Shown here piece after piece: positions 23,282 through 59,965 of a stretch of DNA of 64,000 nt. The translations under genes were made by a program, and so were the position numbers. The first letter of the stretch is position 1. Each line of letters starts with the position of its first letter. The notes beneath the pieces were generated by a model. It was not told the origin of the DNA, did no database searches, and worked only from the letters and a program-made list of their open reading frames with translations. The stretch is from NCBI RefSeq assembly GCF_054482525.1, contig NZ_CM137006.1, one strand, 5' to 3'.

Positions 23282-24045
23282 ATACTGCTCGTCTGAACCA
23301 GGGCACACCATTGTTGCTCAATGCAGTAAGCAAACATTACGCGGAAAATATCGTCCTGAACCAACTGGATTTACATATTCCTGCAGGTCAGTTTGTGGCG
23401 GTGGTGGGCCGTAGCGGTGGTGGCAAAAGTACCTTGCTGCGCCTGCTGGCAGGTCTGGAAACGCCAACCGCAGGCGATGTGTTAGCGGGCACCACACCGC
23501 TGGCTGAAATTCAGGAAGACACGCGAATGATGTTTCAGGATGCGCGTCTGCTACCGTGGAAATCGGTGATTGATAACGTTGGGTTAGGCCTTCAAGGTCA
23601 GTGGCGCGATGCCGCGCGTCGGGCGCTGGCTGCGGTAGGACTGGAGAATCGCGCGGGGGAATGGCCTGCCGCACTTTCTGGCGGGCAGAAACAGCGTGTG
23701 GCGCTGGCAAGAGCGTTGATTCATCGACCGGGTTTATTATTGCTTGATGAACCGCTCGGGGCGCTGGACGCCCTGACTCGGCTCGAGATGCAGGATTTGA
23801 TTGTGTCACTTTGGCAGGAGCACGGCTTTACCGTACTGTTGGTGACGCATGATGTGAGCGAAGCGGTAGCAATGGCTGACCGGGTGTTATTAATTGAAGA
23901 GGGAAAAATTGGTCTGGATTTGACAGTGGATATCCCCCGTCCGCGTCGATTAGGGTCGGTGCGATTAGCGGAGCTGGAATCGGAAGTGTTGCAAAGGGTG
24001 ATGCAGCGTGGGCACTCTGAACAACCGATTCGGCGTCATGGGTAA
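23278..24045 (+). CDS. ssuB: Alkanesulfonate ABC transporter ATPase SsuB
   Basis: ORF track, 255 aa; Walker [10 protein letters not shown] and signature LSGGQKQR; ATGA overlap with ssuC. Confidence 0.95.
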
Positions 24046-24262: not shown

Positions 24263-24313
24263 TGAACTGCACCCCAAATGTTGGACATAATCTGACATCT
24301 GAAGGTGCAGTTT

Positions 24314-24835
24314 ATGAAACATTCATTTGAAGTAAAACTTGCCGCTGTAAATCACTACCTGGCTGGTCATGCAGGCATCATTTCTACGGCAAAACTCTTT
24401 CAACTTTCTCACACCAGCCTCTCACACTGGATTAATCTTTTTCTTCTTCACGGTCCTCGGGCACTGGATTGCAGACACAAGCGTAGCTATTCTCCTGAAG
24501 ATAAACTTTGCGTGGTTCTTTATGCTCTCGGGCATTCTGAGTCTCTACCCCGGGTAGCTGCCCGGTTTAACATTCCCAGCCACAACACGGTTAAAAACTG
24601 GATAAAAGGCTACCGCAAATCTGGTAATGAGGCCTTTATCAGGCGCAGGAAGGAGAAAAGCATGACCCGTTCTGATGATACCCATGAAAACGAGGCAAAC
24701 ATGACGCCGGAAGAGATGAAGAATGAGCTGCGTTATCTTCGCGCAGAAAATGCATATCTGAAAGCCATGCAGGAGCATCTCCTGGAAAAAAAGCGCCAGG
24801 AGCTGGAGAAAAAACGAAAGTCATCCGGAGCCTGA
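24314..24835 (+). CDS. IS3-family transposase OrfA (helix-turn-helix and leucine-zipper part)
   Basis: ORF-track 24305..24835 (GTG) with likely ATG at 24314 (MKHSFEVKL) preceded by AGGTG; ends just after the slippery heptamer A-AAA-AAG at 24787-24793. Confidence 0.85.
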   Translation: MKHSFEVKLAAVNHYLAGHAGIISTAKLFQLSHTSLSHWINLFLLHGPRALDCRHKRSYSPEDKLCVVLYALGHSESLPRVAARFNIPSHNTVKNWIKGYRKSGNEAFIRRRKEKSMTRSDDTHENEANMTPEEMKNELRYLRAENAYLKAMQEHLLEKKRQELEKKRKSSGA

Positions 24836-24939
24836 GGTGCGGACACTGCCAGTCTGACCTGTTAAAGGCTGCAGGGCTGGCCAGAAGCACGCTGTACTAC
24901 CAGCTGTCACTGCAGAAGGCTAAGGACAAGTATGCTGAT

Positions 24940-25694
<755 letters not shown>

Positions 25695-25730: not shown

Positions 25731-28343
25731 TCAAGCCAGTGCTTTAGTTATCTTCTCGTACAGATCGCCAGAGAGATTTTCCAGCCCTTTCAACTGCTCC
25801 AGCGCCGCGCGCATTTTCTCCTGACGTTTGGCATCGTAACGCTTCAGGCGAATCAGCGGCTCAATCAGGCGCGAAGCCACCTGCGGGTTACGGCTGTTGA
25901 GGTCGGTAAGCATTTCCACCAGGAACTGGTAACCGCTGCCATCTTCGGCATGGAACGCTGCCGGGTTGCTGCCCGCAAACGCGCCAATCAACGAACGAAT
26001 GCGGTTCGGGTTGCTCATGGTAAATGAGCGATGCTGCAACAGACCACGCACCGTCTCCAGCACATTTGCCGCCGGGCTGGTGGCTTGCAGGATAAACCAT
26101 TTATCCATCACCAGACCGTCCTGATGCCACTTGTCGTCGTACTCCTGCATCAGCGCGTCACGGCATGGCAGCTGTGCAGCAACCGCCGCAGAAAGCGCGG
26201 CCAGCGCATCGGTCATATTGTTTGCTTCATGGAACTGCTTGCTCACCAGCACGTCAGCCAGATGCGTTTCACCAAAAGCGAGGAAACGCAGGCAGGCATT
26301 TCGCAGAGTGCGTTTTGCAATATCTTCATGCTCAACACGGTACTCGCTCTGGTAATTCGCGTTGTAAATAGCCAGTAGCTCATCCGCCAGTTCAGTCGCC
26401 AGAGTACGAGTGAGTGCTTCGCGTACTTCAGCAATAGCAATCGGGTCGATGATATCGAACAGTTCTGCCATTTCATTGACGGAAGGCAGCGTCAGGATTT
26501 CTGCCGCCAGTGCCGGATCAATCTTCTCATCAAGCAGTACCGCGCGGAAAGCATCAGCCACATGCACCGGCAGAGACAGCGGCTGCCCTTGCTGATGACG
26601 GGCGACGTTGAGCTTGATGTAGGTTGCCAGCAGGCTTTGCGCCGCATCCCAGCGGGAGAAATCATTACGCGCATGGCGCATCAGGAAGGTCAGTTGCTGA
26701 TCGCTCCACTTATATTCCAGTTTCACTGGCGCAGAGAATTCGCACAGCAGCGCAGGCACCGGCTGAAAGTAGACATTATCAAAGACAAAGGTCTGTTCCG
26801 CCTGGGTGACGTTCAGCACCGAATTCACCGGGTGACCGCCTTTCTGCAACGGGATCACTTTGCCTTCGTTGTCATACAGTTCGATGGCAAACGGAATATG
26901 CAGCGGCTGTTTTTCTGCCTGATCCGGCGTAGCAGGCGTGCGCTGGCTGATGGTCAGGGTGTACTGCTCGGTTTCCGGATTATAGTCGTCTTTGACGGTC
27001 ACAACCGGCGTACCGGACTGGCTGTACCAACGGCGGAAATGAGAGAGATCGACATTCGACGCATCTTCCATCGCCTGAACAAAGTCGTCGCAGGTTGCCG
27101 CGCTGCCATCATGGCGCTCGAAATAGAGCTGCATCCCTTTCTGGAAGTTTTCTTCGCCCAGCAGGGTGTGGATCATGCGAATCACTTCCGCGCCCTTCTC
27201 GTAAACGGTCAGGGTGTAGAAGTTGTTCATCTCAATGACCATATCCGGGCGGATCGGGTGCGCCATCGGGCTGGCGTCTTCCGCAAACTGCAATCCGCGC
27301 ATGGTGCGCACGTTGTTGATACGGTTTACCGCGCGGGAACCAAGGTCAGAGCTGAATTCCTGATCGCGGAAGACGGTTAAACCTTCTTTCAGGCTGAGCT
27401 GGAACCAGTCGCGGCAGGTCACACGGTTACCGGTCCAGTTATGGAAATATTCATGGCCGATAACACGCTCAATATCGAGGTAATCTTTATCGGTGGCGGT
27501 GTCGGTACGGGCCAGCACATATTTGGAGTTAAAGATATTCAGACCTTTATTCTCCATTGCGCCCATATTGAAGAAATCCACCGCGACGATCATATAGATG
27601 TCGAGGTCATACTCCAGGCCGAAGCGTTCTTCATCCCATTTCATGGAGTTTTTCAGCGAGGTCATCGCCCACGGCGCACGATCAAGGTTGCCGCGATCGA
27701 CGTACAGCTCCAGCGCAACTTCGCGACCAGAACGCGTGGTGAAGGTGTCGCGCAGCACGTCGAAGTCGCCTGTCACCAGCGCAAACAGGTAGCACGGTTT
27801 CGGGAACGGGTCCTGCCACTGTACCCAGTGACGTCCGTTTTCCAGTTCGCCTTGCGCAACGCGGTTACCGTTGGAAAGCAGGAAGGGATATTTGGTTTTA
27901 TCGGCAATAATTTTGGTGGTAAAACGCGCCAGCACGTCCGGGCGGTCAAGATAATACGTAATATGGCGGAAACCTTCGGCTTCACACTGAGTGCAAAGCG
28001 CATCGCCTGACTGATAAAGCCCTTCCAGCGCGGTATTCGTCGCCGGGCTAATTTCATTAACGATCTTAAGCGTAAAACGCTCCGGCAAATTACTGATGAC
28101 CAGTGCGCCCTCTTCTTCTTTCCAGGCGGTCCACGGCTCATCATTAATATGAACAGAAACCAGTTTAAGATCTTCGCCATCAAGACGAAGCGGAGCATCT
28201 GATGCACCATGACGGACAGCCTGGCTGACCGCGGTAACGACCGTCTTTTGCGCGTCCAGGTCAAAGGTCAAGTCAATATCAGTAATCTGGTAATCCGGCG
28301 CACGATAATCGTGACGGTATTTGGCTTGTGGCTGTTGAGTCAT
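25731..28343 (-). CDS. pepN: Aminopeptidase N
   Basis: ORF track, 870 aa; M1-family motifs GAMEN and HEYFHNWTGNRVTCRDWFQLSLKEG. Confidence 0.95.
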   Translation of the reverse strand: MTQQPQAKYRHDYRAPDYQITDIDLTFDLDAQKTVVTAVSQAVRHGASDAPLRLDGEDLKLVSVHINDEPWTAWKEEEGALVISNLPERFTLKIVNEISPATNTALEGLYQSGDALCTQCEAEGFRHITYYLDRPDVLARFTTKIIADKTKYPFLLSNGNRVAQGELENGRHWVQWQDPFPKPCYLFALVTGDFDVLRDTFTTRSGREVALELYVDRGNLDRAPWAMTSLKNSMKWDEERFGLEYDLDIYMIVAVDFFNMGAMENKGLNIFNSKYVLARTDTATDKDYLDIERVIGHEYFHNWTGNRVTCRDWFQLSLKEGLTVFRDQEFSSDLGSRAVNRINNVRTMRGLQFAEDASPMAHPIRPDMVIEMNNFYTLTVYEKGAEVIRMIHTLLGEENFQKGMQLYFERHDGSAATCDDFVQAMEDASNVDLSHFRRWYSQSGTPVVTVKDDYNPETEQYTLTISQRTPATPDQAEKQPLHIPFAIELYDNEGKVIPLQKGGHPVNSVLNVTQAEQTFVFDNVYFQPVPALLCEFSAPVKLEYKWSDQQLTFLMRHARNDFSRWDAAQSLLATYIKLNVARHQQGQPLSLPVHVADAFRAVLLDEKIDPALAAEILTLPSVNEMAELFDIIDPIAIAEVREALTRTLATELADELLAIYNANYQSEYRVEHEDIAKRTLRNACLRFLAFGETHLADVLVSKQFHEANNMTDALAALSAAVAAQLPCRDALMQEYDDKWHQDGLVMDKWFILQATSPAANVLETVRGLLQHRSFTMSNPNRIRSLIGAFAGSNPAAFHAEDGSGYQFLVEMLTDLNSRNPQVASRLIEPLIRLKRYDAKRQEKMRAALEQLKGLENLSGDLYEKITKALA

Positions 28344-56892: not shown

Positions 56893-57576
56893 TTATGCGA
56901 GAGCCAATTTCTGGCGCGCGTATTGTAGCGCTTTTTCAATCACTTGCTCAATGCTTAAGGTGGTGGAATCCAACACTAAAGCATCGGCTGCCGGAACCAG
57001 TGGCGCTACCGCTCGGTTACGATCGCGGTCGTCGCGTTCTTTGATCTCGGCCAAAAGGCGCTCAAAGTTAACACTAAAGCCCTTCTCCTGCAACTGTAGC
57101 ATGCGGCGATGCGCACGTTCTTCCGAGGAGGCGTCAAGGAAAATTTTCACTGGCGCATCAGGGAATACCACCGTTCCCATGTCGCGGCCATCGGCAATCA
57201 GGCCTGGTAATTCGCGAAACGCGCGTTGGCGACGCAATAATGCTTCACGAACGCGTGGGAATGCCGCGACTTGTGAAGCAGCATTCGCCACTTCCTGAGT
57301 ACGAATTTCGCCGCTGACATCTTCCCCTTCGAGGATCACTTCCAGATTGCCATTGGTCGACACAAAACGTACATCCAGATGGGATGCCAGCGGCACCAGC
57401 GCATCTTCCGAAGCAACATCAACATGGTGATGTAATGCCGCCAGTGCCAGTACGCGATAAATTGCACCCGAATCCAGCAGATGCCATTGCAACGCTTCCG
57501 CCATAGCCTTACACAAGGTGCCTTTCCCTGCACCGCTTGGGCCATCAATGGTAATAACCGGGGCAATTGCCGTCAT
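56893..57576 (-). CDS. cmk: Cytidylate kinase
   Basis: ORF track, 227 aa; P-loop GPSGAGKGT. Confidence 0.95.
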
Positions 57577-57748
57577 CTTTATCTCCTTAAAACAGGCGTA
57601 CCGTTAACATAACCGCGCGCATTATACGCGCCGACGCCACAAATCGTTAACGTTGTGTGCAAAAACCAGTTTTGTCTGTATTCAGATGGGGATTTATTGC
57701 GCAATTATAGCGGGCTGGCAGAAGACCAGCCCGAAAGATGACAATGAT

Positions 57749-58513
57749 TTACTTACCAGAGGCGATACGATCACGTATGTGTTGCGCACGCTCTGTTGAT
57801 GGTGGGTGAGAGTCAAACATGGACTGGGTACGACCGCCATCCAGGCTGGCCAATTTTTCAAAGCTGCCAACCAGCCCCTGGGTGCTGATGCCACGTTTCT
57901 TCAACAGATCAAAGGAGAAATCATCTGCTTCGGACTCTTTATCGCGGGAGTATTTAGCATTGATCGCGCCTTCTGCGATATCACCTAATTGTGAGCGAGA
58001 AAGCTGGGAAGCCACACCGCTGGTAGCGGAAATCGCATCACGTGCGGCAACGATCGCATAAGAAGCTTTCATTTCAGCCAGCGAGTGACCCAACGCGACG
58101 TGGCCCAGTTCATGACCCAGAACGCCTTCAATTTCGTTGTCGTTCATCATGTCCATCAGGCCACTGTAGACACGAACACAGCCGTTCGCCATCGCCCATG
58201 CGTTGACGTCGCTGGTCATATAAACCTTATAGTTGACCGGCGTGCCATTAATATTGTTACCCAATGCTTTGGCGATTTTTGCCAGACGTTTACCGTACTT
58301 GCTGGATTTACTTGCGACTTGATTGCCGCTGTCCATTTCGGCACAGCCCTGATTGGCAATCGCTTTTGCATCAGCATCGCTTAACGTTGCTGCTTTATAG
58401 GCATTTAAACCTGAGCTGATAGCCATATTGGTATCAATACCGTGGGTATTTTGACACCCTGTCAGTAATGCTGCAGAGGCCGCAATCGCCAGCAGTAATT
58501 TAGTATTCTTCAT
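57749..58513 (-). CDS. ycaL: M48-family zinc metallopeptidase lipoprotein YcaL
   Basis: ORF-track 57749..58537 trimmed to MKNTKLLLAIAASAALLTGC (lipobox); HELGH zinc motif. Confidence 0.85.
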   Translation of the reverse strand: MKNTKLLLAIAASAALLTGCQNTHGIDTNMAISSGLNAYKAATLSDADAKAIANQGCAEMDSGNQVASKSSKYGKRLAKIAKALGNNINGTPVNYKVYMTSDVNAWAMANGCVRVYSGLMDMMNDNEIEGVLGHELGHVALGHSLAEMKASYAIVAARDAISATSGVASQLSRSQLGDIAEGAINAKYSRDKESEADDFSFDLLKKRGISTQGLVGSFEKLASLDGGRTQSMFDSHPPSTERAQHIRDRIASGK

Positions 58514-58681
58514 GTGAATCATCCGTTGATTAATCATATATAAATATTATGTATCAATAGCTTACATTGACAAACGACGCTACCATTAATCAAAATGACT
58601 CACAAGGTCCGAAAAAAAACGCCGGCAATGTACCGACGTTTTGATAAAGAAAGATTTGGCTATTTATTGCACGTTGTTCAT

Positions 58682-59965
58682 TCAGGCTGCCTGGCTAATC
58701 CGCGCCAGCTGCTCAAAATAATCCGGAAATGTTTTGGCCGTGCATTTGGGATCAAGAATCGTCACTGGTGTATCTGACAACGCCACCAGCGAGAAACACA
58801 TCGCCATCCGGTGATCATTGTATGTCGCGATCTCGGCAAAGTTCAGTTTTTCCGGTGGAGTGATACGAATGTAATCGTGCCCCTCTTCTACTTCCGCACC
58901 AACTTTACGCAGTTCTGTTGCCATCGCAAACAGGCGATCGGTCTCTTTAACACGCCAGTTATAGATATTGCGCAGCGTGGTGGTGCCTTTTGCAAATAAC
59001 GCCGCCGTGGCAATGGTCATCGCCGCATCGGGAATATGGTTCATATCCATATCAATAGCGTTCAGTTCACCACGCGTGCAGGAAATATAATCGTCGCCCC
59101 AGCAAATGGTCGCGCCCATTTTTTCCAGCACATCAGCAAAGCGAATATCACCCTGCATACTGTTACGTCCAATACCGGTCACTTTTACAGTGCCGCCTTT
59201 GATTGCTGCTGCTGCCAGAAAGTAAGAAGCGGAAGATGCATCGCCTTCGACCAAATAAGTACCCGGAGACTGATAAGACTGCCCGCCTTTAACGACAAAT
59301 TGTTGATAGTGCTGATTTTCAATTTCAACACCAAACGTCTTCATCAGATTGAGTGTGATGTCGATGTAAGGTTTAGAAACCAGATCGCCTTTAATACGAA
59401 TCACCGTATCTTCCGGCGCAAGAGGCGCAGTCATTAACAGTGCGGTGAGGAACTGGCTGGAAACGGAGCCATCAACTTCAACGTTGCCGCCAGTAAAGCC
59501 GCCCTGTAAACGCAATGGTGGATAATTTTCTTGTTCCAGGTAAGTGATCTTCGCCCCGCCCAGGCGCAGCGCATCCACCAGATGACCAATGGGGCGTTCT
59601 TTCATACGCGGTTCACCGGTCAGCACAATATCATTGCTACCCAGACAAAGAGCTGCCGCCAGCGGACGCATTGCCGTTCCGGCGTTACCGAGGAACAACT
59701 CCAGGGCACCTTCTGCGTGTAATGGACCGCCGTTACCGATGATTTCGCAACGCGTACGATCAGCTGAAAGCGTATAGCTTACCCCTAACGCTGCTAATGC
59801 ATTCAGCATATGGCGCACGTCATCGCTATCCAGCAGATTGGTTAATACTGTTTTGCCGTGTGCTAATGCCGCCAGCAATAAAGCGCGGTTAGAAACGCTC
59901 TTGGAACCGGGCAGATTAATAGTGCCATCGACACGAGCGATGGGTTGTAACGTCAGGGATTCCAT
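58682..59965 (-). CDS. aroA: 3-phosphoshikimate 1-carboxyvinyltransferase (EPSP synthase) AroA
   Basis: ORF track, 427 aa; starts [23 protein letters not shown]. Confidence 0.95.

Follow-up and report, generated by a model that had tools for sequence, protein, structure and literature searches.

The ycaL reading frame of an Escherichia coli genome very probably encodes a 254-residue lipoprotein precursor

The ycaL locus

The window analysed here is a stretch of 64,000 nucleotides from contig NZ_CM137006.1 (assembly GCF_054482525.1). Unless stated otherwise, all features described below lie on its minus strand. On this strand aroA (58682..59965) is followed by ycaL and then by cmk (56893..57576). 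The order aroA-ycaL-cmk-rpsA is also found in E. coli, Salmonella, Citrobacter, K. oxytoca, Cronobacter, Superficieibacter, Trabulsiella and Kluyvera. At an Enterobacter-type locus (L005, 1-1371) ycaL is preceded by a gene for a LysR-family regulator and, before that, by a sulfatase gene; aroA is not there, while the leader block at -18..-1 and the downstream cmk-rpsA are still present.

The ORF listing and a motif scan of the window give an open reading frame of 262 codons at 57749..58537, whose translation starts with MINQRMIHMKNTKLLLAIAASAALLTGCQ. It contains three in-frame ATG codons: at 58537 (codon 1), at 58522 (codon 6) and at 58513 (codon 9). The coding sequence that we support is 57749..58513, that is 254 amino acids and a stop codon, and the RefSeq coding sequence of genome NZ_CP023386.1, which is 100% identical, maps exactly to these positions.

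This is not a chance reading frame, because its product matches the Pfam family Peptidase_M48 (PF01435) with 98.6 bits (cutoff 20.3, E=5e-28, profile positions 20-185 of 186) and is nearly identical to YcaL of strain K-12, and because the locus is present throughout the species: the 1.1-kb region is found at a coverage of at least 80% in 5,423 of the 5,426 complete E. coli genomes, many of them 100% identical. The RefSeq label at the matched E. coli loci is everywhere "ycaL: metallopeptidase YcaL". The K-12 gene (b0909, NP_415429.2, "periplasmic protease YcaL") is the same gene, with 252 of the 254 residues identical (99%), the same position between aroA and cmk, and the same 765-nt coding sequence and start codon as in the window. 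The two substitutions are T12A, in the h-region of the signal peptide, and T220K.

Antisense and overlapping reading frames within 57653..58419 were considered and rejected, since a real gene on the opposite strand accounts for them; YcaL aligns end to end with its orthologues. The original prediction had named the gene YcaL, an M48 lipoprotein metallopeptidase with a lipobox and a HELGH motif, and this identity holds: both motifs were found, and the Pfam match and the 99% identity to the K-12 protein bear it out.

The peptidase domain and its relatives

The zinc-binding and catalytic motif HELGH is encoded at 58100..58114, with H134, E135 and H138 in the 254-residue numbering (142-146 for the motif in the 262-residue form). 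It is aligned with the HExxH motif of PDB entry 3C37 and is kept across YcaL orthologues, with the exception of a deletion allele in Salmonella that is described below. A candidate third zinc ligand is Glu193 (E201 in the long form; 57935..57937), which lies in an ESEADD motif, is invariant in the orthologues and aligns with the E..AD of 3C37; the BepA counterpart of this ligand is E201 (PMC7950410). Further, His236-Pro237 (57803..57808) corresponds to the M48 "HP" active-site plug, and it too aligns with 3C37. The His is invariant and the Pro nearly invariant among the orthologues. The plug was defined for BepA and is reported to be conserved in YcaL, LoiP, HtpX and BepA (PMC7950410).

The M48 peptidase 3C37 is the closest solved structure by sequence (residues 49-251, E=4e-19), as a distant homologue that is aligned with YcaL at the HExxH, E..AD and HP regions. 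The sequence search of the PDB found no entry for YcaL itself.

Two relatives in E. coli deserve a comparison. K-12 LoiP (YggG, b2936) is 57% identical to YcaL over the full length and shares its architecture: a short lipoprotein signal peptide of matching length, an LTGC lipobox (with the cysteine at position 19 in LoiP), an HExxH motif (HEMGH in LoiP) and the HP motif. The locus of LoiP is tktA-loiP-speB, unlike that of ycaL. The NCBIfam model NF052399, M48_lipo_LoiP, which is of the "exception" type, gives YcaL 414 bits, where its cutoff is 365. That the gene is LoiP, as this match could be read, is ruled out by the 57% identity and the different locus; it is the paralogue YcaL. A LoiP model that scores YcaL above its cutoff carries a risk that names propagate between paralogues, and in UniRef the name "metalloprotease LoiP" is attached to many orthologues of YcaL.

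The second relative, BepA (YfgC), is a periplasmic M48 protease and chaperone of the BAM/LptD pathway, and it has the HExxH, the Glu ligand and the HP plug in common with YcaL. The sequence match between YcaL and the BepA structures has an E-value of about 3e-6. However, BepA is a soluble protein of about 487 residues with a C-terminal TPR domain, while YcaL is a 254-residue lipoprotein that lacks one, and YcaL scores 42.6 bits on the BepA model, where the cutoff is 570.

According to the literature, YcaL is an outer-membrane lipoprotein protease of the M48 family that acts on LptD stalled at BAM (PMC7950410, PMC13067283, PMC11481492). It degrades outer-membrane proteins such as LptD when they are docked on BAM and stalled early in folding (PMC7950410, PMC13067283). 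In this it differs from both DegP, which acts on misfolded LptD in the periplasm, and BepA, which acts on LptD stalled late (PMC7950410, PMC13067283). LptD stalled at BAM is a target of BepA as well as of YcaL (PMC7950410). YcaL is without the TPR domain of BepA (PMC7950410, PMC13067283). For ycaL no strong phenotype is known (PMC11481492). For the protein of the window, lipidation, localisation and substrate are taken from this literature, and so is zinc-dependent proteolysis, for which PMC7950410 cites earlier work on the degradation of LptD.

Signal peptide and lipoprotein processing

With translation from 58513, a rule-based check predicts a lipoprotein signal peptide from M1 to G19 (58457..58513), with the n-region MKNTK (net charge +2) and the h-region LLLAIAASAALL. 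The lipobox L17-T-G-C20 (58454..58465; residues 25-28 in the long form) was found by a regular expression, and its G and C are invariant in the orthologue alignment. The rule that we used is of the PROSITE PS51257 type: it asks for [LVI][ASTVI][GAS]C with the Cys at positions 15-35, an uncharged h-region, and a Lys or Arg within the first seven residues. The 254-residue form complies, with Cys20, K2 and K5.

The 262-residue form complies as well, with Cys28, Arg5 and an uncharged h-region, and in fact all three possible N-termini pass. The original prediction had held that the longer form would obscure the signal peptide, which is overstated. By this rule, the extra residues of the long form would be added to the n-region and would probably leave the lipoprotein signal recognisable.

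From what is known of the family, the YcaL precursor would be exported by Sec, and its Cys20 would be diacylglycerylated by Lgt. LspA would then cut before Cys20, followed by N-acylation by Lnt. A residue other than Asp at position +2 is consistent with Lol-dependent sorting of lipoproteins to the outer membrane. In YcaL the residue at +2 after Cys20 is Gln, not Asp, and for this reason transport by the Lol system would be expected to end at the outer membrane, in its inner leaflet. After cleavage, the mature protein would be a 235-residue M48 zinc metalloprotease domain, with HELGH at 134-138, Glu193 and the His236-Pro237 plug. It would be the same whichever of the starts is used, because signal peptidase II would cut before the same Cys. 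YcaL has been described as an outer-membrane lipoprotein (PMC7950410, PMC13067283).

Transcription context

Between aroA and ycaL lies an intrinsic terminator of the serC-aroA unit (58612..58642), a hairpin followed by eight U, with a folding energy of -15.5 kcal/mol and a z-score of -4.2. A comparable hairpin and T-run follows the upstream gene in Citrobacter, K. oxytoca, Kluyvera and Trabulsiella. The terminator isolates ycaL, and therefore ycaL needs a promoter of its own in the remaining ~95 nt.

A sigma-70 promoter is predicted there at 58546..58573 (TTGTCA, a spacer of 16 nt, CATAAT), with 10 of 12 positions matching the consensus; promoter-like matches as such are not enriched in the region, with four found and 2.3 +/- 1.7 expected. 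Five E. coli alleles were compared, and all have the same -10 hexamer, CATAAT. From this promoter the transcript is predicted to start at about 58541-58537, 0-4 nt from the codon-1 ATG. Such a start would leave no room for a ribosome binding site in front of codon 1, and it would give ATG 58513 a leader of about 25 nt. In the supplements of PMC4782308 (Cappable-seq), PMC4681348 and PMC10301672 there is no mention of a ycaL transcript start, either by gene name or by K-12 coordinates.

There is some variation around this region. The aroA-ycaL spacer (window 58490-58620) exists as two E. coli allele classes that are about 89% identical. In E. coli FDAARGOS_943 (L013, 263-2409) IS2-like and IS5-family transposase genes are found between aroA and ycaL; this insertion stops ~70 nt short of the start of ycaL and leaves the predicted -35 and -10 hexamers intact.

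At the other end of the gene, the spacer between ycaL and cmk (57615-57650) contains an inverted repeat, GCGCGTATAATGCGCGC, with no T-run after it. The repeat overlaps a promoter-like sequence upstream of cmk (TTAACG, 18 nt, TATAAT). Judged from these letters, it may be a candidate terminator of ycaL, part of a promoter of cmk, or both.

The start codon

We compared the N-termini of 23 homologues, which represent over a dozen genera. Leaving aside a few entries that are clearly mis-called or frameshifted, they are 249-256 residues long, and their first residue is the Met that corresponds to codon 9; this column of the alignment does not vary. Orthologues with a conserved longer N-terminus, which the original prediction had named as the observation that would count against it, were looked for, with a negative outcome.

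The upstream DNA was aligned for E. coli and eight further genera (Salmonella, Citrobacter, Enterobacter, K. oxytoca, Cronobacter, Superficieibacter, Trabulsiella and Kluyvera). Across all nine, ATG 58513 is invariant, as are the GGA at -11..-9 and the G at -7. The 24 nt upstream of 58513 show no codon periodicity: the conservation of the would-be codon positions 1, 2 and 3 is 0.74, 0.83 and 0.85. In the first 19 codons after 58513 the corresponding values are 0.74, 0.89 and 0.69, a coding-like pattern. Further, in-frame stop codons are found upstream of the ycaL start in two genera, seven codons before it in Cronobacter and nine codons before it in K. oxytoca.

Of the three ATG codons, the one at 58513 is also the only one with a Shine-Dalgarno-like element. 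This GGAUG (58520..58524) lies 6 nt before it, is conserved and can form a duplex with the anti-Shine-Dalgarno sequence at the 3' end of 16S rRNA. The energy of this duplex is -3.3 kcal/mol for 58513 and +0.6 kcal/mol for each of 58537 and 58522. The site is weak even so, consisting of GGA or GGAUG only.

We conclude with high confidence that this reading frame is ycaL of E. coli, translated from ATG 58513 as a 254-residue precursor. Equally, the alignment makes it very likely that the 24 nt by which the open reading frame extends upstream are 5'-UTR with the ribosome binding site, and non-coding. The shorter start was the one favoured in the original prediction, and it is backed by the RefSeq/PGAP annotation, the N-termini of the orthologues, the upstream DNA of nine genera and an E. 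coli allele with ATA at codon 1 (see below). The equally short signal peptide of the paralogue LoiP points the same way, and so do the aroA terminator and the predicted promoter, which together leave next to no leader in front of codon 1. The ambiguity between two starts that had been described there is real only in the sense that the 262-residue form has been deposited on 17 contigs; the number of in-frame ATG codons is three, the one at codon 6 having been missed.

Could the upstream ATG (58535..58537) still be used, alone or in addition to 58513? The resulting precursor of 262 residues would have the n-region MINQRMIHMKNTK and be processed at the same Cys, and it might be made from a leaderless or nearly leaderless mRNA. 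It corresponds to the longest open reading frame, it passes the lipoprotein rule as described above, and it is found in deposited annotation. The geometry would also allow it: with an alternative -10 hexamer TAATAT and a spacer of 18 nt, position +1 falls near the A of ATG 58537, as in a leaderless transcript. The codon itself is kept in Citrobacter sp. NCU1 and, within E. coli, in the window, in K-12 and in two further alleles of those sampled.

However, outside E. coli it is kept only in that Citrobacter strain and is missing in seven of the eight other genera, among them the two with in-frame stops. It has no Shine-Dalgarno sequence, the extension lacks coding-type conservation, and both RefSeq and the curated K-12 annotation use the short form. 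In the E. coli AVS0756 allele, an example of the second class of the aroA-ycaL spacer, codon 1 is ATA, and the -35-like TTGTCA is TTATCA. Records at least 99% identical to this allele number 1,380 of the about 5,400 complete-genome records, and therefore the long form cannot be made from an allele that is common among sequenced E. coli. We consider initiation at 58537 highly improbable and judge that this ATG is not the start.

A weaker version of the same idea is that, in strains that keep ATG 58537, the promoter may fire at or near it and give a (nearly) leaderless mRNA with a minority of initiation at that codon. We regard this as very unlikely for the sequences at hand. If true, a minority of long precursor would exist, with an n-region that is eight residues longer and possibly other export kinetics, and with an unchanged mature protein.

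The least probable start, and one that we consider extremely doubtful, is the middle ATG at 58522, which would give a 257-residue precursor beginning MIHMKNTK: it is in frame, it is present in 7 of the 10 compared sequences, and an Enterobacter-type gene call (P0024, 258 residues, MIYMKNTK...) uses its equivalent, but it has no Shine-Dalgarno sequence of its own, Salmonella, Superficieibacter and Cronobacter have AAG or ACG in its place while the ATG after it never varies, its partial conservation is explained by the position of its AUG inside the conserved, Shine-Dalgarno-like GGAUGA element, and the exact 257-residue sequence is absent from a collection of 15 billion proteins.

A conserved block in the leader

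In front of the start at 58513, the alignment contains a conserved block of 15 nt, AATCAAYGGANGATT, at -18..-4 (58517..58531), with high column conservation and without codon periodicity. It is nearly invariant across the nine genera, which exceeds what a weak Shine-Dalgarno sequence alone would need. It could be a putative binding site for a regulator or a small RNA, as far as sequence conservation can suggest.

The arms of the block, AATCA and TGATT, are palindromic in E. coli. A hairpin of AAUCA and UGAUU as a structural element was considered and rejected: there are no compensatory changes, and Salmonella breaks two of the five pairs. The predicted fold of the ycaL RNA from the predicted transcript start to +44 has a z-score of -0.08. 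A search of the ycaL leader against Rfam (E<=1) returned two chance-level matches to eukaryotic or archaeal families, far under their gathering scores. The block is absent 5' of the paralogue loiP.

Annotation in databases

The start from 58513 is very probably correct and already known, and the reference annotation already uses it. In an exact-sequence look-up in the collection of 15 billion proteins, the 254-residue form is found on at least 1000 contigs. On its 17 contigs the 262-residue form is labelled, for example, "putative heat shock protein" or "peptidase, M48 family". It is an annotation artefact, carried by few of the older or automated depositions.

The choice of the start is a matter of annotation hygiene, as the signal peptide, the 5'-UTR and the ribosome binding site all follow from it. 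In practice, expression constructs at this locus depend on it, as do signal-peptide prediction and the interpretation of ribosome-profiling or transposon data.

A Salmonella deletion allele and an insertion sequence

A common ycaL allele of Salmonella enterica, which lies outside the window (249 residues; L016/L017, gene 1001-1750), has an in-frame deletion of 12 nt near position 1390 when compared with L003:1860-1945. The loss removes one copy of a perfect direct repeat, ACTGGGCCATG x2. In the protein, GVLGHELGHVSLGH becomes GVLGHVSLGH, and the HExxH motif is gone. The exact 249-residue sequence (P0086) is found in 435 blocks of the collection, among them complete chromosomes of 4.7 Mb. Intact alleles of 253 residues coexist with it: one of them (P0135) is on 334 contigs, and they are found in serovars Typhi CT18, Newport and Give. 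In E. coli the counterpart of the repeat is imperfect, and the HExxH is intact.

The loss of the motif predicts that YcaL would be catalytically dead in much of Salmonella. The deletion is not mentioned in a paper on Salmonella ycaL (PMC11481492).

Elsewhere in the window, at 24305-25662 on the plus strand, we observed a two-ORF insertion sequence of the IS3 family, located between ssuB (which ends at 24045) and pepN (25731..28343, minus strand). Its first ORF encodes 176 residues with HTH_28/HTH_Tnp_1 domains, and the second encodes 240 residues with HTH_21 and rve integrase core domains.
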